Positions 36,070-50,039 of a DNA stretch of 50,102 bases are shown one piece after another. The notes under the pieces were generated by a model. It saw only the letters and a list, made by a program, of their open reading frames with translations. It searched no databases and was not told the origin of the DNA. The translations under genes and the position numbers were made by a program. Within the stretch, counting starts at the first letter, position 1. Each line of letters opens with the position of its first letter. This DNA comes from Pseudomonadota bacterium (GTDB lineage: Bacteria; Pseudomonadota; Alphaproteobacteria; MPNO01; UBA2964): assembly GCA_027624735.1 (NCBI GenBank), contig JAQBTY010000001.1, positions 1-50,102 of the forward strand. Direction: 5' to 3'.

Positions 36070-36762
36070 ATGTCACAAGATTACATCGATATATCCATCG
36101 CCCTGCTAAGCGCGCTTGCAGCCGGTAGCCTGATCGGGCTCGAGCGCACCTATCATGGCCGACCGGCCGGCTTCCGAACCCATGCGCTCGTCTGTCTCGC
36201 GTCAGCCCTGCTAATGGTGGTGGCGGTCTATCAGCTTCAGTGGTTCGACCAGGGACCGCAGGAGATTATCCGCATCGAGCCAACCCGCATGGCGCAGGGC
36301 ATCATGACCGGCATTGGGTTTCTCGGCGCCGGTGTGATCTTCAAGGAAAAATTGACCGTGCGCGGTCTGACCACCGCGGCCTCGATATGGATCACCGCAT
36401 CGATCGGGATCCTTTATGGCGTGGGATTTTTCTTTCCGGCGCTGATGGGCACCGTGGCGATCCTTGGCGTGCTGGCTGGTTTCCGCTGGTTCGAACGGCG
36501 TATTCCGTCCCAATTTTTCTTCGAGTTCAGTGTCCGTTACCCCAAAGACAAGGTGCCGACCCTGAAAGAGGTACTAACAATTCTGAAGGATCACGGCTTT
36601 ACGGCTTCGGCGGTCAGCTTCAGGCTTGTTGCCGCAGGCACTCAGTTCCAATACGAAACAGTCATCCGCAGCAACAATCTGCCCGCCGCCCAGAAGCTTT
36701 CGGCCGACCTGTTGAAGCTGCCGGATGTCGAAGAATTCAACGTGCTCCCGATGGGAGACTGA
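36070..36762 (+). CDS. MgtC/SapB family membrane protein
   Basis: ORF from GTG at 36031; the first ATG is at 36070. Signature GLERTYHGRPAGFRTHALVCL. Four to five helices plus a C-terminal ACT-like soluble domain. Confidence 0.85.
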   Translation: MSQDYIDISIALLSALAAGSLIGLERTYHGRPAGFRTHALVCLASALLMVVAVYQLQWFDQGPQEIIRIEPTRMAQGIMTGIGFLGAGVIFKEKLTVRGLTTAASIWITASIGILYGVGFFFPALMGTVAILGVLAGFRWFERRIPSQFFFEFSVRYPKDKVPTLKEVLTILKDHGFTASAVSFRLVAAGTQFQYETVIRSNNLPAAQKLSADLLKLPDVEEFNVLPMGD

Positions 36763-37498
36763 TTCTTTTTAAGTTCGCGCCGGCCCGCTCCCCCCTAACG
36801 TCGGGCAAGGTCTTCATCATGCGGCGCACCGCGTCATCGGCGATAGACGCAAACATCTCGGGATCTTTTGTCATGAGGCCCGCGCGCGCGGCGGAAACGG
36901 GCACGTCAATGATCGAGATCGGCAAACCGCCATCTGACCGACCCGCTGCATGGTGCGCCTGCCATAGAATTTCGCCATCGGCGATCCGCCTCATGGTAAG
37001 GCTGACGGTAAGACCGCGCCGGGCCCACAGCACCATATAATCATCCTGCACCTGGGACAGGTGAATTTCGACCAGCGCGCCACAGCGTGCCTCGCGAGCG
37101 AACACCCGGCGGTCCGATACCGCCATAATATCGAGCCCGAGCCTGGCTTCCATACGGCGCAACCGCGCGCCGCCGATTACCCGGGGCAGACGTATCGCCA
37201 GATGTCGCTCCACGGCATCTTCCACGAGCCGGGAGATCGCGCGCGGCGCGGTGGTCTTGGTGACGATCGCGGCGCAAACCGGCGCCTCGGTATAAAACGC
37301 ATTGGCCAGACGGTAATCAACGCGGCGCTCCAGAAACGAGTCCGATTCGGCCTTTGGCGCACCGGTATGATAAGTGGTTTGCAGGCAGCCGCCGCCGAAG
37401 GCCGGAACCAGCAGGACCACGACCCGCAGGAACCCGTCAGGCCACAGGGGGTTGCCTGCCCCTGCCCTAATCACAGCCGGGACCGCGTGCCCGGCCAC
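36737..37498 (-). CDS. cluster gene 15: lipoprotein, unknown function (LpoB/DUF799/TolB-N-like alpha/beta pattern)
   Basis: GTG start at 37498, so the start is uncertain. Lipobox VVLLVPAFGGGC. Pattern of alternating hydrophobic strands and helices ending in ..GEILWQA. The 3' end overlaps the convergent MgtC gene by 26 nt. Confidence 0.65.
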   Translation of the reverse strand: MAGHAVPAVIRAGAGNPLWPDGFLRVVVLLVPAFGGGCLQTTYHTGAPKAESDSFLERRVDYRLANAFYTEAPVCAAIVTKTTAPRAISRLVEDAVERHLAIRLPRVIGGARLRRMEARLGLDIMAVSDRRVFAREARCGALVEIHLSQVQDDYMVLWARRGLTVSLTMRRIADGEILWQAHHAAGRSDGGLPISIIDVPVSAARAGLMTKDPEMFASIADDAVRRMMKTLPDVRGERAGANLKRISLPSGAR

Positions 37499-38468
37499 GG
37501 GGAGGCGGCAGCGCCACCGACCCGGCCAGGGGCCGGCCGTCGACGGTGAAATCGCCTAGAATGAGCCGCGACCGGTCCCAGCGGTAGGCGGCATGGATCA
37601 GTCTGGCTGTTTTGTATTGCGGCCCCAGTACCGCGCCCAGCCCGCCGAGCAAGGCGGCATCCACGTGACGCGGAAAGACCCGGACCGGCCGCCAGTCGGT
37701 CAGGCGATGGCGATCGGCGATGCTCGCGAAAACGCGCGCTTCCTCGGCAATGGCTTCGCCCTGTGGCGAACGGATAAAGCCGCTAAACCGGTCCATGTCG
37801 ATGGGCCAGGTCTCGCCGACCTTGCCCGCGGCGGCAAAGAGCCTTGCGCCCCCGGCCAGCACCGCCGCCTTGACGCCATAGCATTGTGTGAGCTGGCGAT
37901 AGAGCGCGCGCCGCGCGTCGGCCCGTCGCGGCCAGGCGATTTCGATGACCGGACCCTGGCCATGTTCGAGCAGCCGCAGCAGCGCGCCACCAGTTTTCGT
38001 GTTCCGGTCGCCATCCACCATGGCAGTAGCGAACTCCGCCGATGGCTTTCCGGATGGCTTGATTGCCGGCACCGGTTCAAGGGGCTTTATGCTGAGTTTT
38101 ATCGGCGGGACGTTGCTTGTTACAGGAGCCGACACCGGTTTGGCGGCCGTGATCCGCTTCATCGGCAAGATTGGTGCCGGCTGTATCGGCGTAATTTTTA
38201 CCGCGCTACTGGACGATACGGGGGACGATACAGGCGGTGGCGGCAACTGGATCGCCATTGCTGTGGCACCTGATTGCCTGGCGACCGTCGCGGCCACCCG
38301 TTTTTCCGGTCTGGGCCTATCAATTTGAGCGCTTTGATATAGCGCGACCGACGCCAGTACCAACCCGCCGATCAGCAGCACGGATACGGTCAGAGACAGC
38401 CGGTCGGCCGGGCCTGTCGCGCCTGGATCGACCGGCTGAGGCCGATCACTGGTTGATCGACCGGGCAT
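37467..38468 (-). CDS. cluster gene 14: bitopic membrane protein, TM anchor + Pro-rich rod + ~190-aa C-terminal domain (TonB/TolA-like architecture)
   Basis: ATG at 38468. Single TM helix LSLTVSVLLIGGLVLASVALY. About 100 aa Pro/Ser/Val-rich segment (QLPPPPVSSPVSSSS...PLEPVPAIKPSGKP). The globular C-terminus has no recognised motif. Confidence 0.7.
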   Translation of the reverse strand: MPGRSTSDRPQPVDPGATGPADRLSLTVSVLLIGGLVLASVALYQSAQIDRPRPEKRVAATVARQSGATAMAIQLPPPPVSSPVSSSSAVKITPIQPAPILPMKRITAAKPVSAPVTSNVPPIKLSIKPLEPVPAIKPSGKPSAEFATAMVDGDRNTKTGGALLRLLEHGQGPVIEIAWPRRADARRALYRQLTQCYGVKAAVLAGGARLFAAAGKVGETWPIDMDRFSGFIRSPQGEAIAEEARVFASIADRHRLTDWRPVRVFPRHVDAALLGGLGAVLGPQYKTARLIHAAYRWDRSRLILGDFTVDGRPLAGSVALPPPRGRARGPGCD

Positions 38469-39024
38469 ACAGAAGCTCCATCTCTTCAGCCAGCGATAAC
38501 AGTTCCTTGCGCCGTTCCGCGCCCGTCATCAACCGCGTTCCCTCTTTCAGGGCGGGGGCGGCCGGAGCGGCGTCGAGGCCGTCGAGCACTTCCCTGCGCC
38601 GCCTGGCGACGTCCGGCTCGAGAACCTGGGGAGCCCTCTCGATGATGGTCGGCACGGATTTCCGGCTTGTTGCCGAGCCTGTTTCCGGCAACGCCTGGAG
38701 GTCGCTGGCGAGTTGGCGCGACCGGGATGGTTCGGCCAGCGGCTCCGGTCGTGTCACCGTGGCCGGCGTCACAGGCTGCGTTACCGGCTGCGTTACTGGC
38801 AGGGATGGCGCCGTTACTAGCGTCGGTCCGGTCTTGCGCCCGGCCTTCTCCGTTTCGCGTCCAAACATGGACTGGCCGGCGGTGAGCGCCTTGTTCGCAT
38901 AGGATTTCATGTCGCCGGCGGCATCATGAACCTGCCCGGCGATTTTCTGCACTTCACCACGATCGGCGGTAAACAGGAACACCAACGCGGCGGCGACCGC
39001 AACATTGAATAGCAGAAATTTCAT
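38446..39024 (-). CDS. cluster gene 13: N-terminally anchored protein with Pro/Thr-rich repeat linker
   Basis: ATG at 39024 with GGAAGGTG upstream, 1 nt after the stop of the MotA-like gene. Anchor MKFLLFNVAVAAALVFLF. VTQPVTQPVTPATVTRPEP is encoded by a 12-bp tandem repeat at 38774..38797. Confidence 0.7.
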   Translation of the reverse strand: MKFLLFNVAVAAALVFLFTADRGEVQKIAGQVHDAAGDMKSYANKALTAGQSMFGRETEKAGRKTGPTLVTAPSLPVTQPVTQPVTPATVTRPEPLAEPSRSRQLASDLQALPETGSATSRKSVPTIIERAPQVLEPDVARRRREVLDGLDAAPAAPALKEGTRLMTGAERRKELLSLAEEMELLYARSINQ

Positions 39025-39025
39025 G

Positions 39026-39574
39026 TCATTCACCTTCCATCCGGGCCGCGATCGCGTGTCTTCCGGCCATGGTCCGATCAGGGACAACGCTGCGATTGTG
39101 GGCATGGGTAACGACGATCAGGCCGCGCAGGAGCGCCGATACCGGCAGACCGACAACGGTGGTCATGAAGGCGAGGCTGAAATTCGCCGTCATTTTGCGG
39201 ATCACCGGCTGGATGGTTTCGGGCGTCAGTTCCTGACCGGCCAGCGTGCCGATACCAAGGCTGATACCCAGCAACGTGAAGGTCAGCGCTAACGTGGTCA
39301 CCCCGTTGGCGGCCTGAACACCGGCCTCGAACCAGACCTCGTCGCCGGCGCCCTTCATCTGCAGCATGCGCACCCAGCTATAGAGAGCCAGGAACACCAG
39401 GCTGGTCAGCATCACCACGAAAGACCAGCCCAGCACCTCGCGCGCCCAGTTGGCGATGTCCGTAACGCTATGGGAGGTCATGAGCACCGCCACCGCCAAG
39501 GCGATGGCGAGCCCACCCATCAGGTAGCTTACCGCGCGCGACGAGCTATGGAGGGTACCGAGCAGGGCACGCAT
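39026..39574 (-). CDS. cluster gene 12: short MotA/TolQ/ExbB-family proton-channel-like protein
   Basis: GGGAGG Shine-Dalgarno. Four predicted TM helices. The last two read FTLLGISLGIGTL ... FSLAFMTTVVGLPVSALL. This parallels the ExbB/TolQ/MotA core (IGLFGTVWGI ... ALLATAIGLVAAIPAVV). Confidence 0.65.
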   Translation of the reverse strand: MRALLGTLHSSSRAVSYLMGGLAIALAVAVLMTSHSVTDIANWAREVLGWSFVVMLTSLVFLALYSWVRMLQMKGAGDEVWFEAGVQAANGVTTLALTFTLLGISLGIGTLAGQELTPETIQPVIRKMTANFSLAFMTTVVGLPVSALLRGLIVVTHAHNRSVVPDRTMAGRHAIAARMEGE

Positions 39575-39575
39575 C

Positions 39576-39968
39576 CTACCGCCTCCCTACACGCGCGTTC
39601 ATCAGGCTCTCGGTCGACACGCCAACCTGCTGAAGCCAGTGATCCATCAGCGTGCGATTATGTTCGGTCGACGCATGCACCAGAAACGTCAAATCGTAAT
39701 TCTCATAGGCCGCGCGCACCGCGGGCGTGCTCTTACCAACCAGCGATTTGTCTCGCAGAACCAGACGCTCCAGATCGATCAGGCGGTTACGGGACATTTC
39801 GACCTTGGCCTGGCGCCTTTCCGGGGTGAGTTCGGAGGTGAGCATTGACTCCAGCATCAGGGCCCGCTCGCGTTCCATGTTTTCGAGCGATCCGGCGTGG
39901 CTGGGGACGCTGATCCCAGCCGCCAATACCAGGACAGCGGCGGCGATGAATCGATTGGAAGTTCTCAT
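39576..39968 (-). CDS. cluster gene 11: small exported helical protein, unknown function
   Basis: GGAGGA Shine-Dalgarno. Signal peptide MRTSNRFIAAAVLVLAAGISVPSHAG. 130 aa. The stop lies 1 nt from the next start. Confidence 0.7.
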   Translation of the reverse strand: MRTSNRFIAAAVLVLAAGISVPSHAGSLENMERERALMLESMLTSELTPERRQAKVEMSRNRLIDLERLVLRDKSLVGKSTPAVRAAYENYDLTFLVHASTEHNRTLMDHWLQQVGVSTESLMNARVGRR

Positions 39969-39995
39969 GATCTAATCCTCCGGTTTCGGTGAGCG

Positions 39996-40886
39996 TTATC
40001 GGTTGACAAAAAATTCGACGGCGTCGGTGACGCCCTTGTCCGCCGTCTGGGTTTCGGCCCCGGCGATATCGCCGCCATTGACGGTTTCGGACAAGGCCAT
40101 GGCATCCAGCGCCACCAGCTTGGCCATGTAGCCAAGAATCGACTGTTCCTGATCGATCACGGCGATGGTGGCTTCGTTTTCGCCGATCAGCTGGCGCAGA
40201 AAATCCTCCCGCGACACGGTCGCGCCATCGACTTTCGGCTGTTCGTTCATCGGGTGAGCGTTGACCGCCTGAACCAGCTGTTCGATGGCGGCGACGTTTT
40301 TGGCATATTCCCGGGCATATTTGCTTTCGGTCATCAGCGACGACCGGAACAGCTTTGCATCGACCTTGGCGATGGTATTTTCGAACCGGTCACGCGCCGC
40401 TGTCTGCTTGTCGATCAAGGCGGCACGTTGCGGCGTCAGGCCGGTGTTCTTTTGCTTTATCTTGCCGAGCAAATTTCCATAAACATGGATTTTGGTGCGC
40501 GCATGTTTACGGCGCAGCGACTGGTGATCGGCGACGAGATCCAGATAGGCACGTTTTTCCGCAAGAAACTGGTGCCTGAGTTCGACCCGCAGATCGCCTT
40601 CGGCCTGTTCCATGGCGCCGCGCAAATCTTCCAGCGTCCTGACCTTGAGGCTCATTTTTTCTTCAGTATCTCTGACCGCCGCAGCCAACGACGATTTTGC
40701 GTAATCCTGTTCGATGGCCTTTTTGAGGAAATTCGCCGGCAGCTTGATCAGACGTTCGCTGGCCCGGGGCGACCAATTCGCCTCTTCCGCCGAGGCACGT
40801 GCGTCAGTCATGGGTCCCGCGATCAGGGAAGCCGCGATAACGCAGGCAGACAGGCCGGCTACGGAAATCGGTCTAAATATGTTCAT
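39996..40886 (-). CDS. cluster gene 10: exported coiled-coil-rich protein, unknown function
   Basis: AGGAGA Shine-Dalgarno. Signal peptide MNIFRPISVAGLSACVIAASLIAGPMTDARA. Long charged heptad-like helices (EEKMSLKVRTLEDLRGAMEQAEGDLRVELRHQFLAEKRAYLD). Confidence 0.7.
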   Translation of the reverse strand: MNIFRPISVAGLSACVIAASLIAGPMTDARASAEEANWSPRASERLIKLPANFLKKAIEQDYAKSSLAAAVRDTEEKMSLKVRTLEDLRGAMEQAEGDLRVELRHQFLAEKRAYLDLVADHQSLRRKHARTKIHVYGNLLGKIKQKNTGLTPQRAALIDKQTAARDRFENTIAKVDAKLFRSSLMTESKYAREYAKNVAAIEQLVQAVNAHPMNEQPKVDGATVSREDFLRQLIGENEATIAVIDQEQSILGYMAKLVALDAMALSETVNGGDIAGAETQTADKGVTDAVEFFVNR

Positions 40887-40917
40887 CGCTTGCTCTCCTG
40901 AATGGGGCGCTCCACCC

Positions 40918-41493
40918 TTACTTGTTCTTCCAATAGAGAACGCGCCGCATTTCGCTTTTCAGACCGTCGTTGATGTTCAACGCGGAAAATTCACCGAAAG
41001 TCCAACGCTCGCGCTGACCGAGCAGCGCTTCCATGGTGGTCACGAAGGACGTGCCGTCGGGATAGTAGAAATCATAGTCGGCGAACCGGTTCTTGAATTT
41101 TCCGAAATTATCGCGGGCCTTTTCCACATTTCCGCCCTTGAAGAAATTCTGGACCGAGAGCGCATAGGCCCGCATGCGTTCGTCGCGGGCGATACCGGCT
41201 GCGTCCGGACCAAGGCCGGTTTCACATTTTTCAAGCACTTGGGCGCTCGCCAGGTAGGTGCCGCTTGTCCCGGACGAGCGTGCCTGGCGGTCGAGTTCAA
41301 CACCCTGATCGCGGCAGGCCCTGTAGTCGCGCATAATGGATATCTGTTCGAAACGCGCCTCGCGGTAACCGATCCCTTCCAGAGGGCCGTTGACATCGCT
41401 GGTGCAAGCCGACAAAGCCACCGTGGCCAGCGCGGCAAAAACAGTGCGCCGAAGGGCGGGTAACAATTTAACGGGATTCCGGAATGCCAACAT
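40918..41493 (-). CDS. cluster gene 9: lipoprotein, unknown function
   Basis: Internal ATG at 41493 (MLAFRNPVKLLPALRRTVFAALATVALSAC) gives a signal peptide with an LSAC lipobox. The rest is helical. A 123-nt gap lies upstream. Confidence 0.7.
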   Translation of the reverse strand: MLAFRNPVKLLPALRRTVFAALATVALSACTSDVNGPLEGIGYREARFEQISIMRDYRACRDQGVELDRQARSSGTSGTYLASAQVLEKCETGLGPDAAGIARDERMRAYALSVQNFFKGGNVEKARDNFGKFKNRFADYDFYYPDGTSFVTTMEALLGQRERWTFGEFSALNINDGLKSEMRRVLYWKNK

Positions 41494-41616
41494 GGTTAGG
41501 TCCTTTTCTGATCGTGTCGAGCCCAAGTTCCTTGGGGGTTACGGGGGTTAGGGAAGGATCAGAGGCGTTTTCCCTCTGTATCGCCACAAGTGCAGCCAAA
41601 ATTTGTCCAAAACTGT

Positions 41617-42918
41617 TCATGGCCTGAAATCATTGGTCAGGCGCAAAACCGCCACGCCGTGACCGCGCGCTTCGGCCAGAATACGGTCGACATCCTGCGC
41701 GGATGCAGCGTTCCGCGCCCGCCGCCATACCCCGCCCAGACCGGCAAAATCGGCTACCACACCGGCTTGCACCGACAGAACAACCAGGTCCTGGCGTAGC
41801 GGCGCGATAAGGCGGCTGGGCGGCCTTGCGTCGAGGTCGATCGTCGCCCGGGGCGCGAGGGTCTTTTCGGCATAAATCGTGCGCAGGCGGAAACCGGCGC
41901 CGTTGGCGTTTTCACGGAGCGCCATCACCCAGAGCGTCGCTGCCCTGTCCGACCCGTTGGTCAGGCGATAGTGGAAATCACACAGGCCGGCGACACGCAA
42001 ACCGGCTGCCGGGGCACCTTCGATCACCGGTTGCCTTGTAATCAGGGGCGCAACCCGGTCGAGATGAACCGCAGCGCAGGGCGCGTCCGCGGGCGCCTGG
42101 GTCGCCACGGAAATCGCCGCCAGCGTCGATGCCGGATGGGGCCGCAATGACGCCGGCACAAGACGCACCGCTTGGGCTTTCGCGACACCCAGATCCGGCT
42201 CCAGCCCCAATTTCTGCCACCCGGCAAGAACGGTGATCGCCAACAGCACACATGAGGCGGCATAGGCCAGGTGTCGCGGCATCTTCCTGTGGCCGCCAAT
42301 CATGGACGGCGTGCGAGCCAGCCATTGCCGGATCCGGCGGCGACGTTTCAGACCCAGCACCGCCAAAACATCGCATACTGTCTGTGCCGCGACGATGTGC
42401 AGCCGGTCACAGTCTCCGGCGAAGACATCCTCCAGCGCCTGTGTCGCTTCGATCAAATTGCCGGCGGGAACCGCCATAACGACTCGCGCGCCCGCATCGA
42501 GATGGGCTCTGATCCGGCCTTCCGATTGACGGATCTTGCGATCGACATCTTCCACCGTATCGACCGTCAGATCGCGCGTAACTTCGCCCGTGGCCCAGAC
42601 AATTTGTGGAGTTTTATCATCGGACCGGACCAGCCGGCCTTCTTCGAACAGCGCATGGGCGATGAACAGACCGAGCTGCCAGCTCAGGCCGCTGGCGATG
42701 GGGTTGCTGATATCGACGCGATAGGCGCTATGCCCGAAACAGGCTTCGATGACACCGGTGGGACGGCGCACGAAGGAATCGTAATCCGCGCTAATGGGGA
42801 GCTCGATCGCCTTCCCGTCGTGACAAACGACCGAGCGCACATCGGAATCCTCAGGCGTTATACGCTGAATTTCGGAGGGACCCTCGGTGGTCGCGATATA
42901 GATGGCGGTACGTTTCAT
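41617..42918 (-). CDS. cluster gene 8: bitopic inner-membrane protein with cytoplasmic Lon(S16)-protease-like domain and periplasmic C-terminal domain
   Basis: The ATG overlaps the upstream stop (ATGA). SGLSWQLGLFIAHAL and IVWATGEVTRDLTVDTVEDVDRKIRQSEGRIRAHLDAGARVVMAVPAGN parallel Lon DGPSAGIAM..AL and [24 protein letters not shown].RGG...VLIP..N. An Arg-rich stretch is followed by the TM helix LAYAASCVLLAITVLAGW. Confidence 0.55.
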   Translation of the reverse strand: MKRTAIYIATTEGPSEIQRITPEDSDVRSVVCHDGKAIELPISADYDSFVRRPTGVIEACFGHSAYRVDISNPIASGLSWQLGLFIAHALFEEGRLVRSDDKTPQIVWATGEVTRDLTVDTVEDVDRKIRQSEGRIRAHLDAGARVVMAVPAGNLIEATQALEDVFAGDCDRLHIVAAQTVCDVLAVLGLKRRRRIRQWLARTPSMIGGHRKMPRHLAYAASCVLLAITVLAGWQKLGLEPDLGVAKAQAVRLVPASLRPHPASTLAAISVATQAPADAPCAAVHLDRVAPLITRQPVIEGAPAAGLRVAGLCDFHYRLTNGSDRAATLWVMALRENANGAGFRLRTIYAEKTLAPRATIDLDARPPSRLIAPLRQDLVVLSVQAGVVADFAGLGGVWRRARNAASAQDVDRILAEARGHGVAVLRLTNDFRP

Positions 42919-43463
42919 CGCAGGAACACATCCGTCTTGGGATTGCAGAGCGCGCCGACGAGATCAGACCCGGTATCGAGGAGAAGCTGGATCACCCCGC
43001 CTATGGGCTTCGGCAAGGGAACCTTGCGGCAGCCGTCTCCGTCTCCAATGACAAAAAGCGTGCCCGGCGCCGGGATGGCGGTGTTGGCCAGTTTGATGAT
43101 CAGATAAAGCTGATCCGGGTCGGCCCGTGATTCACGCAGAGAAATTTCGAAACCGGAACCACTCCGCGTGGTCACCGTCCCACTGCTGGCGGCGGCGCGG
43201 CTCACCGGCCGATAGGGCGCGACCCGGGCCAGAAGACAGCGCAAATCCTCCCGCGCGCGCGCGTCGGTCGCAAGCGCTCGGGCCAGATCGGTGCTTGGGG
43301 TTACAGCCGGGTCGGTGGCGTAGCGGTAGATATCGTGAAAACTGACCACAGGCTTCATGGTGGCATGATCGCGGGCAGTCAGGCCGTCGAGCGATTCACG
43401 CGCGATGAAGATCGCCTCGGATAGTGAATGGGCTTCCTGCCAGCTAGCTGGGATTTCACTCAT
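42915..43463 (-). CDS. cluster gene 7: cytoplasmic hypothetical protein (182 aa)
   Basis: ATGA overlaps at both ends (43460-43463 and 42915-42918). No TM helix, signal peptide or recognised motif. Confidence 0.7.
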   Translation of the reverse strand: MSEIPASWQEAHSLSEAIFIARESLDGLTARDHATMKPVVSFHDIYRYATDPAVTPSTDLARALATDARAREDLRCLLARVAPYRPVSRAAASSGTVTTRSGSGFEISLRESRADPDQLYLIIKLANTAIPAPGTLFVIGDGDGCRKVPLPKPIGGVIQLLLDTGSDLVGALCNPKTDVFLR

Positions 43464-45175
43464 CGATGGTCTCCGTACAGGGCGCGAAACTGCGCGAAAA
43501 AAATGTCGTAGTCCGACAAATATTGCTTAGTCCACCCACCCTGACGCCGACCCAGACGCTGCACGCGGGCGGTAAATTTCAGCAAGGAATTTCTGATCAT
43601 GATCAGCGCATCGGACGCCGCGGCGCAGGCATCCGCGCGATCGGAGGCGGCGTAGCCGGCATCGGGCCAATCGGCATCCTTGAAGCCCTTGCGGGTCGTG
43701 CGCTTTGCCGCGCCGCCGGATTCTTCGATCATCGCCGCCAGTTCGGGGCACTTATCCAGCCCGGCGGTCAGCGTGCGCATGAACCGATCATCGGTGTCAG
43801 GCGTCTTCAGACGAACGATCTGGCCGGTACAAACTGTCTCAGCATGGTCATCCCGGTCTTCAAAAACAGACGCGAGCGGCGACAGATCAATGTGCGGCCG
43901 CAGATACAGCAGCACCGTAATGGCTTCTTCACGGCGCGCGGCCACCAGGTGATGGAACGAAGCAAGCAAGGCCGTTTGAAGATTGTCACCTATTTGATCG
44001 ATATAGTCGGCGAAGTCACCATAGGCGCTGGTCACATTGTTGAGTTTATCCAGATACGGCAGCCGGAGGGTATCCTCGCCGCGGCGCAGGGCTTCCGTCA
44101 GCCGCGCCTGCTGCGCCCCCATCACCTGAAGGCGCAGGATTGAGAGCGGCAGGGCAAGGGCGGAACCGCCATATTCGATGAGGGGCGCGATGGCATCGGT
44201 TTCGGTCTGTTTCAGAAACTTGACGCCATTGGCCGGCGCCGCCCGCAACACATCCAGCGGCGCCTGACGTTCGTGGATGGGTCCCAGCGCCGCATCGACC
44301 GCCTCGGGCGTGATGTCAGCGGGATCGATTTCACCGGCGTCCCGGTCGGTGCCGATGGAGCGCGCACGACCAAGGGCGCGTGCCTGTGCCGCCGCCGCCA
44401 GCGCATCGCGCGCCGCCGCCATCAGGCGGAAGACCGATTTAAACGATTTGAAATCGCCCCCCGCCCCGCTGGCGCACCGAGCCTCGTTTGAGGCGGCAAT
44501 CCAGAAGGCCAAGACCGCCTCGTCGTCGATGCTGTGAGGGCCCACCTCGCCATTATCGGAAAGCCGCAAGAACGACATGACCGCGCGGAATTTGCGATGC
44601 GACTGCGCGCTCGGCAAATGCGCCGACAGGTAATGATAGACCCGGCGGGCAAGATCATTGGCCAGCGCATCGACGGCTCCCTTGGTCGCCTGACCCGCCG
44701 GCACGGCGCGAAACTGCGCATCGAGGTCGGCATAGCCGAAGACCGATACGAGGAATTCCATCAGGGCCGACAGAAACGGCATCCGCGTATAGGCGATCCC
44801 GAAAACGCCATCGGCATAGTTCACACGGATACCGGCGCCAAGCCGCTCAACGCCATCAGCGCCGGTCCGATTCTGAAAAATCGACCGAAAGGCGGCGGCG
44901 CGGGCGATGCCGCTGCCCCAGAAAACCAGCTCGTATCCCTGGGCGCGGGCGTTAGCCCCGATCACCCGGTCCGACGCGACGATCAGATGGCACAGCTCAC
45001 GCAGCGGCCCGCCATAGCTCCGGCACACGATCCAGCGGACCAGACGGCGGCACATTGCGGCGGAGAATTTAGGCGCATCGGCGGCGGTAATGTGGGCGAT
45101 CGACCGCAGGATGGCGGCCAGTTCGTCACTGACGTCGCCGCCAGCCATTCCTTCAAGCGGGGGCAGGCTGTCCAT
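43460..45175 (-). CDS. cluster gene 6: large cytoplasmic hypothetical protein (571 aa)
   Basis: AGGTG lies upstream of the ATG at 45175, 1 nt after the stop of the SLT gene. Mostly helical composition. No Walker A, TM helix or signal peptide seen. Confidence 0.7.
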   Translation of the reverse strand: MDSLPPLEGMAGGDVSDELAAILRSIAHITAADAPKFSAAMCRRLVRWIVCRSYGGPLRELCHLIVASDRVIGANARAQGYELVFWGSGIARAAAFRSIFQNRTGADGVERLGAGIRVNYADGVFGIAYTRMPFLSALMEFLVSVFGYADLDAQFRAVPAGQATKGAVDALANDLARRVYHYLSAHLPSAQSHRKFRAVMSFLRLSDNGEVGPHSIDDEAVLAFWIAASNEARCASGAGGDFKSFKSVFRLMAAARDALAAAAQARALGRARSIGTDRDAGEIDPADITPEAVDAALGPIHERQAPLDVLRAAPANGVKFLKQTETDAIAPLIEYGGSALALPLSILRLQVMGAQQARLTEALRRGEDTLRLPYLDKLNNVTSAYGDFADYIDQIGDNLQTALLASFHHLVAARREEAITVLLYLRPHIDLSPLASVFEDRDDHAETVCTGQIVRLKTPDTDDRFMRTLTAGLDKCPELAAMIEESGGAAKRTTRKGFKDADWPDAGYAASDRADACAAASDALIMIRNSLLKFTARVQRLGRRQGGWTKQYLSDYDIFFAQFRALYGDHR

Positions 45176-45176
45176 G

Positions 45177-45725
45177 TCACACCTGCCCGCGAAGAAGTTG
45201 TTTACGATAGTGCCGGCGCAGACGCTTTACCCTGGCCACATAGCGCGCGGTTGCCGGTATGACCCGGGCATTGGCCCAGGCGCCGACCGCGGACCCGCCA
45301 TTGTAATGGGACAGCGCCAGATCGACCCGGCCGCCATAACGGCGGATCAGACGTTTCAGAAAATGCAGCCCGAGGCGGATATTCAGTCTCGGTCGCCAAA
45401 GTAATTTCGGCTCTATCCCGTATTCGCCCCGCGCGGTCATTGGCATGATCTGCATGACGCCGCGGGCGCCTTTGGCGCTCCGCGCCTTGGGATTGAAGTT
45501 GGATTCCACGTGCGCCACGGCAAGCGCGAGGGAGATGGGAACCCGCAACCGCTCCGCTTCCTGGATCACCAGCCGCTTGACCTCATGGCGCGCAACGGGC
45601 CGGTTTTGATTGGCATCGGCGACCGTACCGCACCCGGCAACAAACAGCGCACAGACCAAGACAATTGTCACAGCCGACCCAATACCGCGTCGGCAGGCGG
45701 GCTGGGAATGCACCCTATAACGCAT
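45177..45725 (-). CDS. cluster gene 5: lytic transglycosylase (SLT domain) lipoprotein
   Basis: ATG at 45725 (MRYRVHSQ..) with AGGAGA upstream. Lipobox LFVAGC. SLT catalytic motif AVAHVESNFNP and GARGVMQIMP, then HYNGG. Confidence 0.85.
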   Translation of the reverse strand: MRYRVHSQPACRRGIGSAVTIVLVCALFVAGCGTVADANQNRPVARHEVKRLVIQEAERLRVPISLALAVAHVESNFNPKARSAKGARGVMQIMPMTARGEYGIEPKLLWRPRLNIRLGLHFLKRLIRRYGGRVDLALSHYNGGSAVGAWANARVIPATARYVARVKRLRRHYRKQLLRGQV

Positions 45726-46161
45726 TCTTCTTCTCCTGCAGGGCGCGACGCCAGTTGCCGTCAAGCGTGGTGATAACCAGCCGGCTTGCCGCGATCTTGC
45801 GCCGTGCTTCAATGGCCTGCGCCATGGACAGGTCCGGTGTAACGGCGAGCACTACCCGTTTGGTATCGTCAATGGTGGCCAGGTCGAATGGTTTGAGATC
45901 GCGGCCAAAAAAACGGCTGCCATCGAAGACCACCAGCACGTCTTTGTTGGTCAGCTTGTCGACCGAACCGGTGGCGCGCGCCGGACCGCTATCGGCGATG
46001 ACGGCCGAAATCATCGCCCGGTCCGGCCTTTGAGGTTGCGATTTGGCCGCCGGAACACTGACGCCCATGGACATGGCGGTCAGCACCATGACGCTGAAGA
46101 AACCCATCGCCATCGCCAGCGCGATCTCGGTCATCGCATTTTCTTGTGCACCGCCACTCAT
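45715..46161 (-). CDS. cluster gene 4: ExbD/TolR-like bitopic protein (Glu in TM helix)
   Basis: GGAGGGA Shine-Dalgarno 4 nt upstream. TM helix MTEIALAMAMGFFSVMVLTAM carries an acidic residue near the cytoplasmic end. The periplasmic part VLVVFDGSRFFG...KRVVLAVTPDLSMAQAIEARRKIAASRLVITTL parallels ExbD VYLSVKADNSMFIG...TTIFFRGDKTVDYETLMKVMDTL..AGYLKIGLV. Confidence 0.6.
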   Translation of the reverse strand: MSGGAQENAMTEIALAMAMGFFSVMVLTAMSMGVSVPAAKSQPQRPDRAMISAVIADSGPARATGSVDKLTNKDVLVVFDGSRFFGRDLKPFDLATIDDTKRVVLAVTPDLSMAQAIEARRKIAASRLVITTLDGNWRRALQEKKNAL

Positions 46162-46229
46162 CGTTCCCTCCGCTCGCTGTTCAGGACGTCTTTCCCGGCA
46201 CCCTTGCGTACCCTCACCCCTGCCTATCC

Positions 46230-47066
46230 CTAAGGAAGGACCAGGGCGGTTTTACCTTCCTGGCGCAGGCTGGCGCGCAATTCATGGATCAGCCGGCGGG
46301 TCATGCGGCCCGTCGCGACCTGTCCGAAATCATGCTGATAGGTGCGGATCGCGCGGCGCAGACTTGGGCGCATCAGCCCATCTTGCGGGCCGGGATCATA
46401 GTCAAGGCGCGCCAGCAATTGCTGCGCCAGCAACACCGGGCGCCGGGCGCCGGCGGCCAATTGCGCCGGCGGTCCTTGGCGCCCTTTCCCGGTTACAGCA
46501 ACGCCTGGCTCAGTCAGCCAGATCTGGCGCGGCCGGGTCGCGGCAAAGACAATGCCGTCTTCGACGCTCACCGCCTTGTAGGAAATGGAAACCGCCTGAC
46601 CGTCTTTGCGCAGCGCCCCGACGATCAGGATGTCGACCTTGGCATTGCGCAGCAGATCGACGACCCGACTGTTGGCGGGTGATTCAAGCTCTTCAATGGT
46701 ATCGAGCTCACGGATAATTTCGCGCAGCGTCTCGCGGGCAACGAACCGGTAGGTTCCGCTGCCACGGCGCGTCAGCTCGGCCAGCAGCCGTGTATTGAAT
46801 TCGCTCGCCACCGACGGCGGTATGGTCTTTTCGGTATCCTTGAACGGCGCTACCGCGATACGCGGCTTGCCGTAGCCGCCGATCGCCGGAATATCCGCGA
46901 CACTGGCCGAGCCGATACCGGCCAACAATTCTTCGGCAAAAGACGCAAACTGGCTTTGCGCGGTACCTTGCGCGAAGGCCGGTCCCATAAGACCAATCGA
47001 CAAGGCGGCGGCGGTAAAGCCAGCCCATCGCGACAGAGGTTGGAATATTTTATTGCATGCAATCAT
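46230..47066 (-). CDS. cluster gene 3: exported protein with FlgO/TolB-N-like module and C-terminal peptidoglycan-binding domain (PG_binding_1)
   Basis: ATG at 47066 gives signal peptide ..FTAAALSIGLMGPAFAQG. PRIAVAPFKDTEK...VDILIVGAL pattern. C-terminus LLARLDYDPGPQDGLMRPSLRRAIRTYQHDFGQVATG matches the PG_binding_1 consensus. Confidence 0.75.
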   Translation of the reverse strand: MIACNKIFQPLSRWAGFTAAALSIGLMGPAFAQGTAQSQFASFAEELLAGIGSASVADIPAIGGYGKPRIAVAPFKDTEKTIPPSVASEFNTRLLAELTRRGSGTYRFVARETLREIIRELDTIEELESPANSRVVDLLRNAKVDILIVGALRKDGQAVSISYKAVSVEDGIVFAATRPRQIWLTEPGVAVTGKGRQGPPAQLAAGARRPVLLAQQLLARLDYDPGPQDGLMRPSLRRAIRTYQHDFGQVATGRMTRRLIHELRASLRQEGKTALVLP

Positions 47067-47091
47067 GGTTCGGCCCCCATATTTTTTCGGT

Positions 47092-47910
47092 TTACCAATC
47101 CCGCGAGTCGGTGGCGGGTTGTGCCGTCGGATCTGCTTCAACGACGTAAGTATTTCCGGTTCGCGCGATGCGCGCCGTGAGCTGCAAATGATGCAGCATC
47201 TTCCTGAGCGAGAGCTCGGTCCCGTCTGCCGTACCATCCTGGCTGAGACGATAGAGAACCCCTTCACTGGCCGTGTAGTCGCGCCGGATCCGTGTCACAC
47301 CCGGGAAATTACGGAGATAGAGTTCGATCCGCGGCAACAGGGAGGGATCGATGCGCCGAAACGCCACGCTGATCTGGGTCGGGTCAGCCGTGGCAACGTG
47401 GCGATCGCGGCCAAGCCTTACCAGGCGCCGGTCCACATCCGCCGCGAGGCGCGCCACCAGCGGCGTAACCCGGCGTTGGATTTCCTGGTCGATACAGGAT
47501 TGCGGGCAGTGCGCCGCAAGGCGCCACGACGTACCCGGCCCAGTATCAAACCGCGCCAGAATGCGCTTGGTATCCCCGTCGATCAGAGTCGCTCGCAGCT
47601 CGATTGTGGCGTGAGACGTATAGGCGCCTTGAAGGATCCGGCGTTCGGTGGCTACCCGTAGAATTGTCGCACCGGGTGCGGATGTCCTCACGCCCCCATC
47701 GAGCACCGCATAGCCGCGCCGGCCGAGGGCCGCCATGATGAGACGACGCACCCTTCTGTCGGTTGCGGCGTTTTGCCCGTCGCCGGCCTCCTGGGTAACG
47801 ACCAGCTCTGTCTTGACTAATTGGTCCGCCTGGACGGCCGCAGGGGTGAGAAAGGGCACGGCAAGGGCCAGTAGTGCCCCAGCCGCGGCGACAGGCCTGA
47901 TCATCGCCAT
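47092..47910 (-). CDS. cluster gene 2: exported hypothetical protein
   Basis: ATG at 47910 (MAMIRPVAAAGALLALAVPFLTPAAVQA) with AAGGGGGG upstream. No recognised motif. Confidence 0.65.
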   Translation of the reverse strand: MAMIRPVAAAGALLALAVPFLTPAAVQADQLVKTELVVTQEAGDGQNAATDRRVRRLIMAALGRRGYAVLDGGVRTSAPGATILRVATERRILQGAYTSHATIELRATLIDGDTKRILARFDTGPGTSWRLAAHCPQSCIDQEIQRRVTPLVARLAADVDRRLVRLGRDRHVATADPTQISVAFRRIDPSLLPRIELYLRNFPGVTRIRRDYTASEGVLYRLSQDGTADGTELSLRKMLHHLQLTARIARTGNTYVVEADPTAQPATDSRDW

Positions 47911-47951
47911 GCCCCCCTTCCACTCCCACGGGTAACGTCGCAGTGCCATGC

Positions 47952-48635
47952 TCAACTTGCCTTGCGCCAGGTGCCGTCGCTGGCGCGGCAGGCGGTGCCG
48001 TGCAGCTCTTCCTCATACCCATCGATCCAGCCCCAGGACTTGAAGTCGCGGCAGTACTGCCCGTTTTCACGCTGATAGGTGCGAGTCGGGGTAACAGTGT
48101 AGTCCGCGCCCGTACCGGGGTTGGTCCAGGTCACCCGCTGGCCGGATTTCGCGGTCTCCAGCGCATTGTGCGTGTGAAGCCGGTCGGCCCGGTCCATCGA
48201 ATCGCCGATGCTGCCGCCGATGATGGCGCCGAGGACACCGCCCACAAGGATCGCGGGACCCCGGCCGCGGCCGCGGACGATCGCGTTACCGGTCAGCCCG
48301 CCGAGCACGGCGCCGATGACGCTGCCGGCGACGGCGTTGTTGCCACGGCGGTAGGTCGGCTGGGTCACGACGGTATTGCGATGAACGACCCGCGTGTGAT
48401 GGTGGTGGACGACCCGCGTGCGAACCGGACGGTGTATCCAGCGGCGGTCCCGGCGATAACGGGCACGGGATTCACGGGGCTGCACATAGACAACTTTCTT
48501 AACCACTTTCACGACCCTCGGGCCATCATGGCGCTGATGCCTCTTCCAGCCATCGGCATGGGCCGGCGCCGCGGCCAGCGTAACAAGAGAGATCCCGGCA
48601 AGGCCAAACAGGGTATTTCTGGTGTATGTCAACAT
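47952..48635 (-). CDS. cluster gene 1: glycine-zipper / 17-kDa surface antigen family outer-membrane protein
   Basis: Signal peptide LFGLAGISLVTLAAAPAHA. Glycine zipper AVAGSVIGAVLGGLTGNAIV..GGVLGAIIGGSIG. C-terminal surface-antigen pattern NALE..SGQ.V.W.NP.TG...V.P...Y...G.YCR.F......G.....GTACR..DGTW. Confidence 0.8.
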   Translation of the reverse strand: MLTYTRNTLFGLAGISLVTLAAAPAHADGWKRHQRHDGPRVVKVVKKVVYVQPRESRARYRRDRRWIHRPVRTRVVHHHHTRVVHRNTVVTQPTYRRGNNAVAGSVIGAVLGGLTGNAIVRGRGRGPAILVGGVLGAIIGGSIGDSMDRADRLHTHNALETAKSGQRVTWTNPGTGADYTVTPTRTYQRENGQYCRDFKSWGWIDGYEEELHGTACRASDGTWRKAS

Positions 48636-48769: not shown

Positions 48770-49318
48770 ATGAAAATGCGTTCCAGACGGAGGTTGGCGA
48801 AACCCTTGTTGGCGGCACTGTGCATGCTGTGGTTTGGCGCGGCTGACCCCGCGCCCGTGGCTGCTTTTGGCGCCGAACCGGCTGCTGCCAAGGGTCGCTT
48901 CAAGCCGGCAATCGAGTTGGCCCAAAATGATATCTGGGTGCAGTTTTTCGAACAGAACCGCAGCCGCAGCCGCCGAAATCAACGCCGCAAAGGTGACCTC
49001 GTTCCCCTGCGGACCGATCCGGGCGAACAGCAGCCGCTTATGCCGGAATTTCGGCGACCGGACCGCAACCGCGACCAGAAACAACGCGAGGAACAGGACG
49101 CCGCCCGCGAGGCTGTACGCCGTGGAGACATCCTGCCGCTCGGCGGTATTATAGAGTCGGTGCAGAGCCAATGCCCCGGCAAGTTTCTCGGCGCCAAGCT
49201 GCAGCGCGGTGGGGACGGATTTTCGTACCGGGTGCGGATTTTGCGACCGTCGGGGCGGCGCGTCGGGCTGACGGTCGATGCGAAAACAGGGGCTGTGGTC
49301 GGCGATGGATGCAGATAA
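48770..49318 (+). CDS. PepSY domain-containing exported protein
   Basis: Signal-like N-terminus RRRLAKPLLAALCMLWFGAA. C-terminus AREAVRRGDILPLGGIIESVQSQCPGKFLGAKLQRGGDGFSYRVRILRPSGRRVGLTVDAKTGAVV matches the PepSY pattern. A PepSY gene upstream of an OmpR/HK pair is a common arrangement. Confidence 0.75.
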   Translation: MKMRSRRRLAKPLLAALCMLWFGAADPAPVAAFGAEPAAAKGRFKPAIELAQNDIWVQFFEQNRSRSRRNQRRKGDLVPLRTDPGEQQPLMPEFRRPDRNRDQKQREEQDAAREAVRRGDILPLGGIIESVQSQCPGKFLGAKLQRGGDGFSYRVRILRPSGRRVGLTVDAKTGAVVGDGCR

Positions 49319-49358
49319 TATTTCTCCATTGGTATGTTACCCACTAGATTGGTAGGCC

Positions 49359-50039
49359 ATGCGTATTCTGGTAGTGGAAGACGATCGCGATCTCAGCCGT
49401 CAGTTGGGCGCCGCCCTGACCGAAGCCAACTATGCGGTGGATTTCGCCTATGACGGCGAGGAAGGCCATTATCTCGGCGAGGGTGAGACTTATGATGCGA
49501 TCATCCTCGATCTCGGCCTGCCCACCATCGACGGCGTCACCGTGCTCAAGCGCTGGCGCGACGCCGGGCTCAACATGCCCGTCCTCATTCTGACGGCACG
49601 GGACGGCTGGTCGGAAAAAGTAGCGGGTTTTGATGCCGGCGCGGACGATTACGTCACCAAGCCCTTCCGCGTCGAAGAAGTGCTCGCCCGGCTGCGCGCC
49701 CTGATCCGCCGCGCCGCGGGCCATGCCTCGGCCGAGCTTGACTGTAACGGCGTCAGGCTCGACACACGGAATGGCCGGGTCAGTGTCGATGGCGCCCCGG
49801 TAAAGCTGACCGCCCACGAGTTCAAGGTGCTGTCTTACCTGATGCACCACCGCGACGAGGTGGTATCCCGCACGGAACTGACCGAACATATTTACGAACA
49901 GGATTTCGACAAAGATTCGAATACGATAGAGGTTTTTGTCGGCCGCCTCCGCAAGAAAATCCGCAGCGATCTGATCGAAACCGTGCGCGGGCTCGGCTAC
50001 CGGCTGGTCGATACGAGCAAGTCCGGTCCGGGTCGCTAG
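49359..50039 (+). CDS. OmpR/PhoB-family response regulator
   Basis: MRILVVEDD, phospho-acceptor context AIILDLGLP, and TKPF. C-terminal winged-helix (LTAHEFKVLSYLM...IEVFVGRLRKKI...TVRGLGYRL). Confidence 0.9.
   Translation: MRILVVEDDRDLSRQLGAALTEANYAVDFAYDGEEGHYLGEGETYDAIILDLGLPTIDGVTVLKRWRDAGLNMPVLILTARDGWSEKVAGFDAGADDYVTKPFRVEEVLARLRALIRRAAGHASAELDCNGVRLDTRNGRVSVDGAPVKLTAHEFKVLSYLMHHRDEVVSRTELTEHIYEQDFDKDSNTIEVFVGRLRKKIRSDLIETVRGLGYRLVDTSKSGPGR

Follow-up and report, generated by a model that had tools for sequence, protein, structure and literature searches.

Regulated proteolysis across the bacterial inner membrane is known from RseP-type site-1/site-2 cascades. Lon domains can also be tethered to the cytoplasmic membrane, as in membrane-bound archaeal LonB, an ATP-dependent enzyme with transmembrane helices inside its AAA+ module, and in B. 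subtilis YlbL (PDZ-Lon), in which PDZ and Lon domains come after an N-terminal transmembrane helix. That Lon-fold proteases without an ATPase can be signalling switches acting on dedicated substrates has only recently been recognised, as in the CalpL-CalpT-CalpS system. Here we describe three adjacent genes, A, B and C, on a 50,102-nucleotide (nt) stretch of DNA from a metagenome-assembled genome (MAG) of an alphaproteobacterium (Pseudomonadota bacterium, GenBank assembly GCA_027624735.1, contig JAQBTY010000001.1, positions 1 to 50,102 of the forward strand). This whole stretch is called the window. Protein C represents a large new family whose members have a Lon fold without an ATPase, are anchored in the membrane and share an invariant Ser/Lys dyad; in-frame B::C fusions exist, and the genes are frequently linked to a lytic transglycosylase (SLT) and other envelope genes. 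To our knowledge, neither LonB nor YlbL has a C-terminal transmembrane helix with an immunoglobulin (Ig)-like ectodomain or partners of the A and B type, and we found no description in the literature of a membrane-anchored ATPase-less Lon-like family with such partners.

The three genes, here called the triad, and the features of their products lie at the following positions of the window.

43460-45175, minus strand: gene A, an open reading frame (ORF) of 571 amino acids (aa); predicted soluble, cytoplasmic and almost all-alpha
44318-44359, minus strand: conserved IGxDR(E/D)AGEIDP motif of A, residues 273-286, in a low-confidence loop of the AlphaFold2 model
43460-43463, minus strand: ATGA stop/start overlap of A and B
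42915-43463, minus strand: gene B, an ORF of 182 aa; predicted soluble and cytoplasmic, candidate protease substrate or adaptor
43179-43199, minus strand: R89-A90-A91-A92-S93-S94-G95 of B, its conservation peak, with the proposed scissile site after A92
42915-42918, minus strand: ATGA stop/start overlap of B and C
41617-42918, minus strand: gene C, an ORF of 433 aa; predicted bitopic inner-membrane protein with a cytoplasmic Lon-fold domain, a transmembrane helix and a periplasmic Ig-like domain
42349-42918, minus strand: residues 1-190 of C, ATPase-less Lon (S16-like) protease-fold domain, from PDB profile matches, Foldseek, hhalign and the invariant dyad
42682-42684, minus strand: S79 of C, within GLSWQ; putative catalytic Ser
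42580-42591, minus strand: (T/S)GEV of C, residues 110-113; Lon-like motif
42535-42537, minus strand: K128 of C, the Lys of VDRKIR; putative catalytic Lys
42211-42351, minus strand: Arg/Lys-rich juxtamembrane stretch (residues 190-214) and single transmembrane helix (215-236) of C, from sequence, AlphaFold2 and hydropathy
41623-42123, minus strand: residues 266-432 of C, periplasmic Ig-like (PapD/MSP-type) beta-sandwich, with an AlphaFold2 predicted local distance difference test (pLDDT) score of about 85-90

The original prediction, made from the letters of the window alone, had described three minus-strand ORFs joined by ATGA overlaps, and both junctions and all coordinates were exactly as it had given them. 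The 4-nt overlap is kept from A to B in 36 of 42 orthologous loci and from B to C in 38 of 46, so these junctions are more than chance. As had also been claimed, A and B lack a transmembrane helix, there being no hydrophobic segment in either. Direct scans of the three proteins and 12 neighbours returned no Pfam, NCBIfam or PADLOC match for A, B or C. The GC content across the region is unremarkable, and a promoter/terminator scan gave counts near the shuffle means, with no site at any gene boundary.

Window C is 100% identical to the GenBank entry 'MAG: hypothetical protein O3C34_00225 [Proteobacteria bacterium]', and a word-index search recovered 55 family proteins, none with a functional name or Pfam domain. 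Conservation across 41 aligned members is very strong in the first ~130 residues, where K128 is invariant and S79 is present in at least 90%. A search of all PDB sequences with the family profile (hmmsearch) yielded 19 matches, every one a Lon protease. LonC ranked first (E = 0.0016), followed by LonA and LonB, with LonB structures (1z0e etc.) among the weak matches. All 19 cover the TGEV...K segment (profile positions ~103-200), and K128 aligns with K625 of Meiothermus taiwanensis LonC (MtaLonC/TTC1975 peptidase). K625 is the catalytic Lys of MtaLonC, whose protease activity is ATP-independent (PMC3391209).

The structure model points the same way. AlphaFold2, run on the family alignment, gave a model of C with a mean pLDDT of 81; block means across residues 1-190 were 74-95, mostly >85, and the N-terminal domain stood at about 90. 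When this model was compared with the PDB using Foldseek, the sole match at E ≤ 1e-3 was the Lon protease 6v11_A (E = 4.9e-4, prob 1.00, 202 aligned columns, 19% identity). In the viral library BFVD, rank 1 was an 853-aa giant-virus 'AAA family ATPase' (prob 1.00), probably a Lon-type protein judging from its size and annotation, and rank 3 was a 'Lon protease (S16) C-terminal proteolytic domain' protein (prob 1.00). The similarity of the N-terminal domain to Lon, first proposed by eye, is borne out by both the profile and the fold comparison.

For residue-level mapping, we fetched E. coli K-12 lon and aligned the C family profile with its protease domain using hhalign. TGEV...K128 fell on TGEI...K722 (E = 0.013). 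Alignment to a LonA profile gave E = 0.001, although this profile is shallow, holding close relatives only (≥71% identity), and makes for a weaker profile-profile test than HHpred against Pfam/PDB70. The N-terminal domain of C alone, in a greedier mode, gave E = 3.2e-4 over 138 columns. Greedy local alignment placed G77-L78-S79 on G677-P678-S679 of E. coli Lon, and the global mode agreed. S679 and K722 form the catalytic dyad of E. coli Lon. In the AlphaFold2 model, strand 66-70 comes before S79, which lies at the N-terminal end of helix 80-92; the catalytic Ser of Lon is placed in the same way.

Among 250 unique, diverse C homologues, S79 is present in 249 of 250 and K128 in 249 of 249. G77, G111 and (T/S)110 are each found in 249 of 249, and the (T/S)GE(V/I) motif, which stands 17 residues before the Lys, is essentially invariant. 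Y46, G55, R67, D69 and H88 are universal, and W80 occurs in 249 of 250. These additional residues are far more than a Lon dyad needs and may form an extended catalytic centre or a partner-binding site. The GLSWQ, TGEV and VDRKIR motifs of the original prediction were found where it had placed them, and its suggestion that both dyad positions are retained holds across the family. C has a Lon fold in which the Ser/Lys dyad is retained and, judged from its sequence, is probably an active protease.

Pfam scans of C and of family members found no AAA+ or degenerate AAA-like module, and the Lon fold begins at residue 1, so C lacks an AAA+ module. This sets it apart from LonC, its best sequence-profile match. 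In LonC, which assembles into a soluble chamber, a large but degenerate AAA-like module is retained, whereas C consists of a ~190-aa protease fold from residue 1 and a C-terminal membrane anchor.

The anchor begins with an Arg/Lys-rich stretch (LKRRRRIRQW...RKMP) that leads into the single transmembrane helix, for which the hydropathy peak (216-234) lies within the helix of the model. By the positive-inside rule, the Arg-rich stretch ahead of the helix indicates an N-in topology. Beyond the helix, the C-terminal domain (~170-190 aa) matched ASH/PapD-like, FimC and MSP domains in Foldseek (prob 0.98-1.0). It contains a near-universal Cys pair, with C281 in 221 of 233 and C313 in 229 of 231 sequences. 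Conserved within a confidently modelled beta-sandwich, this pair fits a periplasmic disulfide and a C-out orientation. The arrangement anticipated for C, a cytoplasmic N-terminus, one transmembrane helix and a periplasmic domain, agrees with all three features.

Long members of the family (524-880 aa; P0174 with 880 aa, P0141, P0189 and others) carry variable extra segments in which no Pfam domain was found. Some members are extended by ~340 aa at the C-terminus or have ~100-160 aa inserted between the transmembrane helix and the Ig-like domain. In one further protein (P0053; locus L068, 1389-2498), the Lon-like domain and transmembrane helix of C are joined to a C-terminus homologous to a 333-aa protein encoded downstream of the triad in the window, g333 (43% identity over 91 aa, E = 4e-9). 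P0053 comes from a single 2.9-kb metagenomic contig and could therefore represent a deletion, a fusion or an assembly chimera.

We then determined the size and spread of the family. An exhaustive hmmsearch of 1.84 billion representatives, counted at 50% identity, found 1,087 C family representatives at E ≤ 1e-3 and 633 at E ≤ 1e-30. The best 150 members are mostly ~400-500 aa long and match nearly the full profile. A scan of one genome per species identified 58 loci. Most belong to Rhodospirillales-type Alphaproteobacteria (Thalassobaculum, Aestuariispira, Kiloniellales, SAR116/Puniceispirillum and strain BAL199), and a few to Gammaproteobacteria (Thiodiazotropha, Sedimenticolaceae). Carriers of the triad are mostly marine Alphaproteobacteria.

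We scored linkage with profile hidden Markov models in the loci with at least 2.4 kb upstream of C (n = 52). The order A-B-C on one strand was present in 51 of these 52 loci, so the co-inheritance of all three genes, which had been put forward as a check on the original prediction, is borne out, and linkage of C to A and B is obligate. The sole locus without a detectable A or B upstream (L062, 9968-11104) encodes a clear C homologue (E = 1.5e-80). In some loci the triad stands alone among unrelated housekeeping genes, such as those for LysR, photolyase-related, major facilitator superfamily (MFS) and acyltransferase proteins, which indicates a self-contained module. Loci from Thalassobaculaceae are split into a type with a full cluster of envelope genes and a triad-only type. 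One MAG, DUZD01, carries two divergent A-B-C copies on different contigs (L018 and L033).

B is poorly conserved overall (41% mean column identity), with one exception. The most conserved 5-residue window of the protein is at A90, within the R89-G95 motif. A91 and A92 are present in 58 of 58 sequences and A90 in 53 of 58; position 93 is S, A, G or D, and position 94 is S or T. R100 is likewise found in 59 of 59. From the residue pattern, B appears to consist of a helical N-terminal half and a beta-rich C-terminal half with the A-A-A motif between them. No PDB match was found for B, and no Pfam match in the 35 members scanned.

The motif resembles the sites cut by other ATPase-less Lon-like proteases. 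CalpL cuts the protein encoded beside it, with A194 at P1 followed by Ser-Thr (bioRxiv 10.1101/2021.12.06.471393), and a conserved Ala occupies P1 in the sites of birnavirus VP4 (PMC12191561). The invariant A-A-A-(S/A)-(S/T) motif of B fits this Ala-P1 specificity.

A physical partnership of B and C is indicated by in-frame B::C fusions, which constitute Rosetta-stone evidence. Two such proteins, P0194 and P0243, belong to different 50%-identity clusters, and P0243 was found on two independent assemblies. Each consists of a full B, an ~11-residue linker and a full C, with the AAA motif kept, and in both loci a homologue of A lies directly upstream of the fusion. In this arrangement, it is the C-terminal half of B that adjoins the protease. 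A DUF4160/DUF2442 pair is encoded near one of the fusion loci. Together, the candidate motif and the fusions strengthen the case for signal-dependent proteolysis, in which C would cut B at AAA|S, as the motif suggests.

A is the least familiar of the three proteins. None of its 69 homologues is annotated, and Pfam scans of 43 members returned nothing consistent. The AlphaFold2 model (pLDDT 82, predicted template modelling score 0.68) is almost entirely helical with one small sheet. Foldseek found nothing significant in the PDB (best E = 0.8), and phmmer and profile hmmsearch against the PDB returned only noise. As modelled, A would be a new fold without a structural relative in the PDB. Its IGxDR(E/D)AGEIDP motif looks like a linear interaction or processing motif.

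Among the described systems, CalpL offers a close parallel. Both CalpL and C are ATPase-less Lon-fold proteins with a Ser/Lys dyad, fused to a sensor domain in CalpL and to a putative one in C. CalpL is encoded beside a dedicated substrate and makes a single cut, after Ala and before Ser-Thr, that releases an effector; by analogy, the logic of the triad may be alike. As the candidate substrate, B adjoins C in 51 of 52 loci, carries the invariant AAA(S/A)(S/T) motif and is fused to C in two clusters. The two systems differ in their sensors and partners. The sensor of CalpL is a soluble cytoplasmic SAVED domain that binds cyclic tetra-adenylate (cA4), whereas C lacks a SAVED domain and has a transmembrane helix and a periplasmic Ig-like domain in its place. 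The partners of CalpL are an anti-sigma/sigma pair, whereas A and B have no detectable relatives. Finally, CalpL is associated with type III CRISPR, in contrast to the triad window, which has no CRISPR, cas or defence context.

Birnavirus VP4 is, like C, of the Lon-related Ser/Lys type without an ATPase. Its defined cleavage sites, each behind an Ala, are cut both in cis and in trans, and the B::C fusions resemble a polyprotein carrying its own protease, as with VP4. Unlike C, VP4 comes from viruses, is soluble and acts on a capsid polyprotein. It was not among the top Foldseek BFVD matches of the C model; one C family member had a weak Pfam Birna_VP4 match (E = 0.053).

We put at about even odds the reading that the triad is an envelope-signal-dependent proteolytic switch in which C cleaves B. 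The periplasmic Ig-like domain of C would sense the state of the envelope or peptidoglycan, to which the co-encoded lytic transglycosylase and other envelope proteins would be the likely link. Sensing would switch on the cytoplasmic Lon-like domain, so that the activity of C would be gated by its periplasmic domain. The Lon-like domain would then cut B at the invariant A-A-A|(S/A)-(S/T) linker. The C-terminal beta half of B, which abuts C in the fusions, would stay with the protease, and the N-terminal half of B and/or A would be released to act in the cytoplasm. The output of the switch would be A and/or the B fragment.

Several points weigh against this reading. Sequence-level E-values of C to Lon are modest (1.6e-3 to 3e-4), and column confidence is low around the Ser in the alignment with E. 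coli Lon. The threshold of the Pfam Lon_C model (PF05362) for the Lon family (MEROPS S16) is not reached by window C or any of the 41 aligned members, and no NCBIfam model matched them either. Because C fails this curated model and lacks an AAA+ module, we class it with a new family of ATPase-less Lon-fold proteins rather than as a strict Lon protease. The universal Y46, G55, R67, D69, W80 and H88 show that the site differs from canonical Lon. The AAAS motif of B could instead be a structural or binding element, and no function is assigned to A. Both the proposed signal and any part played by SLT are deduced from gene neighbourhood only, and in about one-quarter of the loci with full flanks the triad occurs without SLT or the envelope block nearby.

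In the window, the triad lies inside a tightly packed run of 15 genes on the minus strand (36737-48635). The other members of this cluster are as follows.

36737-41526, minus strand: downstream block of seven unannotated envelope genes, all with a signal peptide, transmembrane helix or lipobox
39026-39574, minus strand: g182, a protein of that block with four transmembrane helices and the very conserved motifs TLALTFTLLGISLG and FMTTVVGLP
45177-45812, minus strand: lytic transglycosylase (Pfam SLT, E = 1.9e-22)
45715-46161, minus strand: g148, a small bitopic protein with an invariant Glu12 inside its single transmembrane helix and no PDB match
46230-48635, minus strand: three upstream envelope genes, encoding a PG_binding_1 and CsgG-like protein (345 aa), a 287-aa protein and a glycine-zipper/17-kDa-antigen protein (227 aa), from Pfam

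Only SLT, the PG_binding_1/CsgG-like protein and the glycine-zipper/17-kDa-antigen protein are recognisable among the 15. A signal peptide, lipobox or transmembrane helix is present in every cluster protein other than A and B, leaving A, B and the Lon domain of C as the sole cytoplasmic parts. SLT is the most frequent companion of the triad, lying upstream of A in 41 of 63 loci (tblastn); in the window, a single nucleotide separates the SLT stop codon from the start codon of A (TGAcATG). In most loci g148 accompanies SLT and the triad. The downstream block encodes a lipoprotein (202 aa), proteins of 296 aa and 130 aa, g182 (182 aa), and proteins of 219 aa, 333 aa and 253 aa, for which we found no Pfam or PDB identity. 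It is syntenic in ~35 of 63 loci and inverted in Puniceispirillum, and is a frequent but not obligatory neighbour. The upstream envelope genes are syntenic in closer clades, and the whole array is syntenic in genomes where C is only 38% identical. In itself, the 15-gene cluster may constitute an envelope system that has yet to be described.

Identities were sought for several of these proteins. ExbD, TolR and MotB carry a proton-relay acidic residue in a transmembrane helix, and Glu12 of g148 is reminiscent of it; profile searches gave no support for this likeness. A stator pair of g182 and g148 (MotA/ExbB-ExbD, as in a Ton-, Tol- or Zorya-like cluster) was rejected, there being no Pfam MotA_ExbB match in 24 orthologues and no match in PDB profile searches. 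The sole stator signal is a PADLOC ZorA match for window g182 (E = 0.002); together with the likeness in motifs and architecture (four transmembrane helices in g182, the invariant Glu in the helix of g148), it is kept as a lead only. For g333 and the 296-aa g296, profiles returned low-complexity or coiled-coil noise (SigA, haemagglutinin HA2), and no identity was accepted.

Regulatory genes lie beside the cluster. At 48770-50039 (plus strand), a PepSY-domain protein and an OmpR-type response regulator flank it in the window, and in locus L004 (1399-4057; C 38% identical) a response regulator, a PhoQ-like kinase and a 182-aa gene are found on the same side. These regulators may constitute a dedicated two-component regulator. 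The most distant triad locus (L001, 291-7786) has genes for a PBP1-type transglycosylase/transpeptidase, Peptidase_M23, a g253-like protein, SH3_3 and SLT upstream, a concentrated peptidoglycan-remodelling neighbourhood.

These surroundings allow a broader interpretation, possible but clearly less probable than the proteolytic switch as such. The triad would be the cytoplasmic output of an unrecognised trans-envelope system, in which the sensor triggers the AAA|S cut of B and frees a ~570-aa effector of new fold. Here the peptidoglycan or envelope status would be set by SLT and about 10 envelope proteins, and the system would belong mainly to marine Rhodospirillales-type Alphaproteobacteria, with a few Gammaproteobacteria also carrying it.

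The same gene cluster can be read without any signalling switch, and of the rival explanations this survives best. The triad would be a structural or processing part of a trans-envelope peptidoglycan-remodelling machine, which the 15-gene cluster would encode. Within it, the Lon-like domain would serve to mature components or turn them over, with membrane neighbours or A (by way of its conserved disordered loop) as candidates, and B would have the role of an adaptor or chaperone. The tight packing with SLT, PG_binding_1/CsgG-like, lipoprotein and polytopic membrane genes, syntenic across clades, is consistent with such a role, as are the single nucleotide between SLT and A and the position of the conserved motif of A in a low-pLDDT loop. 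However, there are loci where the triad lacks the block and has unrelated genes around it, and none of the neighbours proved attributable to a known machine. B is singled out as the partner by its AAAS motif and by the B::C fusions. We regard the machine explanation as unlikely.

A lower likelihood still attaches to a Lon-like domain that is catalytically silent, serving as a membrane-tethered scaffold to which A and B are merely bound, or that acts as a general quality-control protease. The scaffold would resemble the domains of RadA and ComM, which, together with BrxL of BREX, share the Lon-like (ribosomal protein S5 domain 2-type) fold with C. Protease-inactive Lon-fold domains do exist, as the Lon-like domain of RadA lacks active-site residues (bioRxiv 10.1101/2021.12.06.471393), and both the failure of the C family to match Lon_C and its many additional invariant residues are in keeping with a scaffold. 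The Lon-like domains of BrxL, RadA and ComM are, in contrast to that of C, fused to AAA+/RecA-type ATPases. The non-catalytic domains, including those of RadA and ComM, have lost the dyad, whereas S79, K128 and (T/S)GE(V/I) of C are essentially invariant across 250 sequences. An always co-encoded partner with an Ala-rich invariant motif also argues for specific cleavage.

The least probable explanation is an anti-phage or abortive-infection module whose sensor-protease responds to infection by freeing a toxic effector, either A or a fragment of B: a protease with an adjacent specific substrate and an uncharacterised effector is typical of such systems, and the stand-alone three-gene unit in variable contexts, the two copies in one MAG and the DUF4160/DUF2442 pair would suit it, yet A, B and C have no PADLOC match, the flanks in the window are metabolic, synteny with envelope genes and a two-component system is strong and clade-wide, the spread is largely confined to Rhodospirillales-type Alphaproteobacteria, and the periplasmic sensor domain and SLT link fit envelope physiology better. 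The original prediction had mentioned BREX, through BrxL, as an aside while seeing no other defence hallmark, and the aside found no support: PADLOC matched none of the three proteins to BrxL, the surroundings lack further BREX genes, and the flanks consist of metabolic or envelope genes. A defence island in the window was likewise rejected because its flanks are metabolic (GDPD, xanthine-dehydrogenase-type and ABC-binding genes), and triad-only loci lie among housekeeping genes. The machine, scaffold and defence explanations are each less well supported than the proteolytic switch.

The C family, with ~1,087 representatives at 50% identity, is covered by no Pfam, NCBIfam or PADLOC model, and all source labels seen were 'hypothetical'. 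It therefore constitutes a widespread protease-fold class that is missing from current annotation. The family also yields a specific hypothesis, that co-encoded B is cleaved at its invariant AAA|S site, and cultured carriers include Thalassobaculum litoreum DSM 18839, T. fulvum KCTC 42651, Aestuariispira insulae CECT 8488 and strain BAL199. If the envelope link is real, the triad would provide a handle on the conserved 15-gene cluster and on A. If the triad does serve as the output of a trans-envelope system, it would represent a new class of regulated inner-membrane proteolysis, distinct from RseP-type cascades and from cytoplasmic CalpL.

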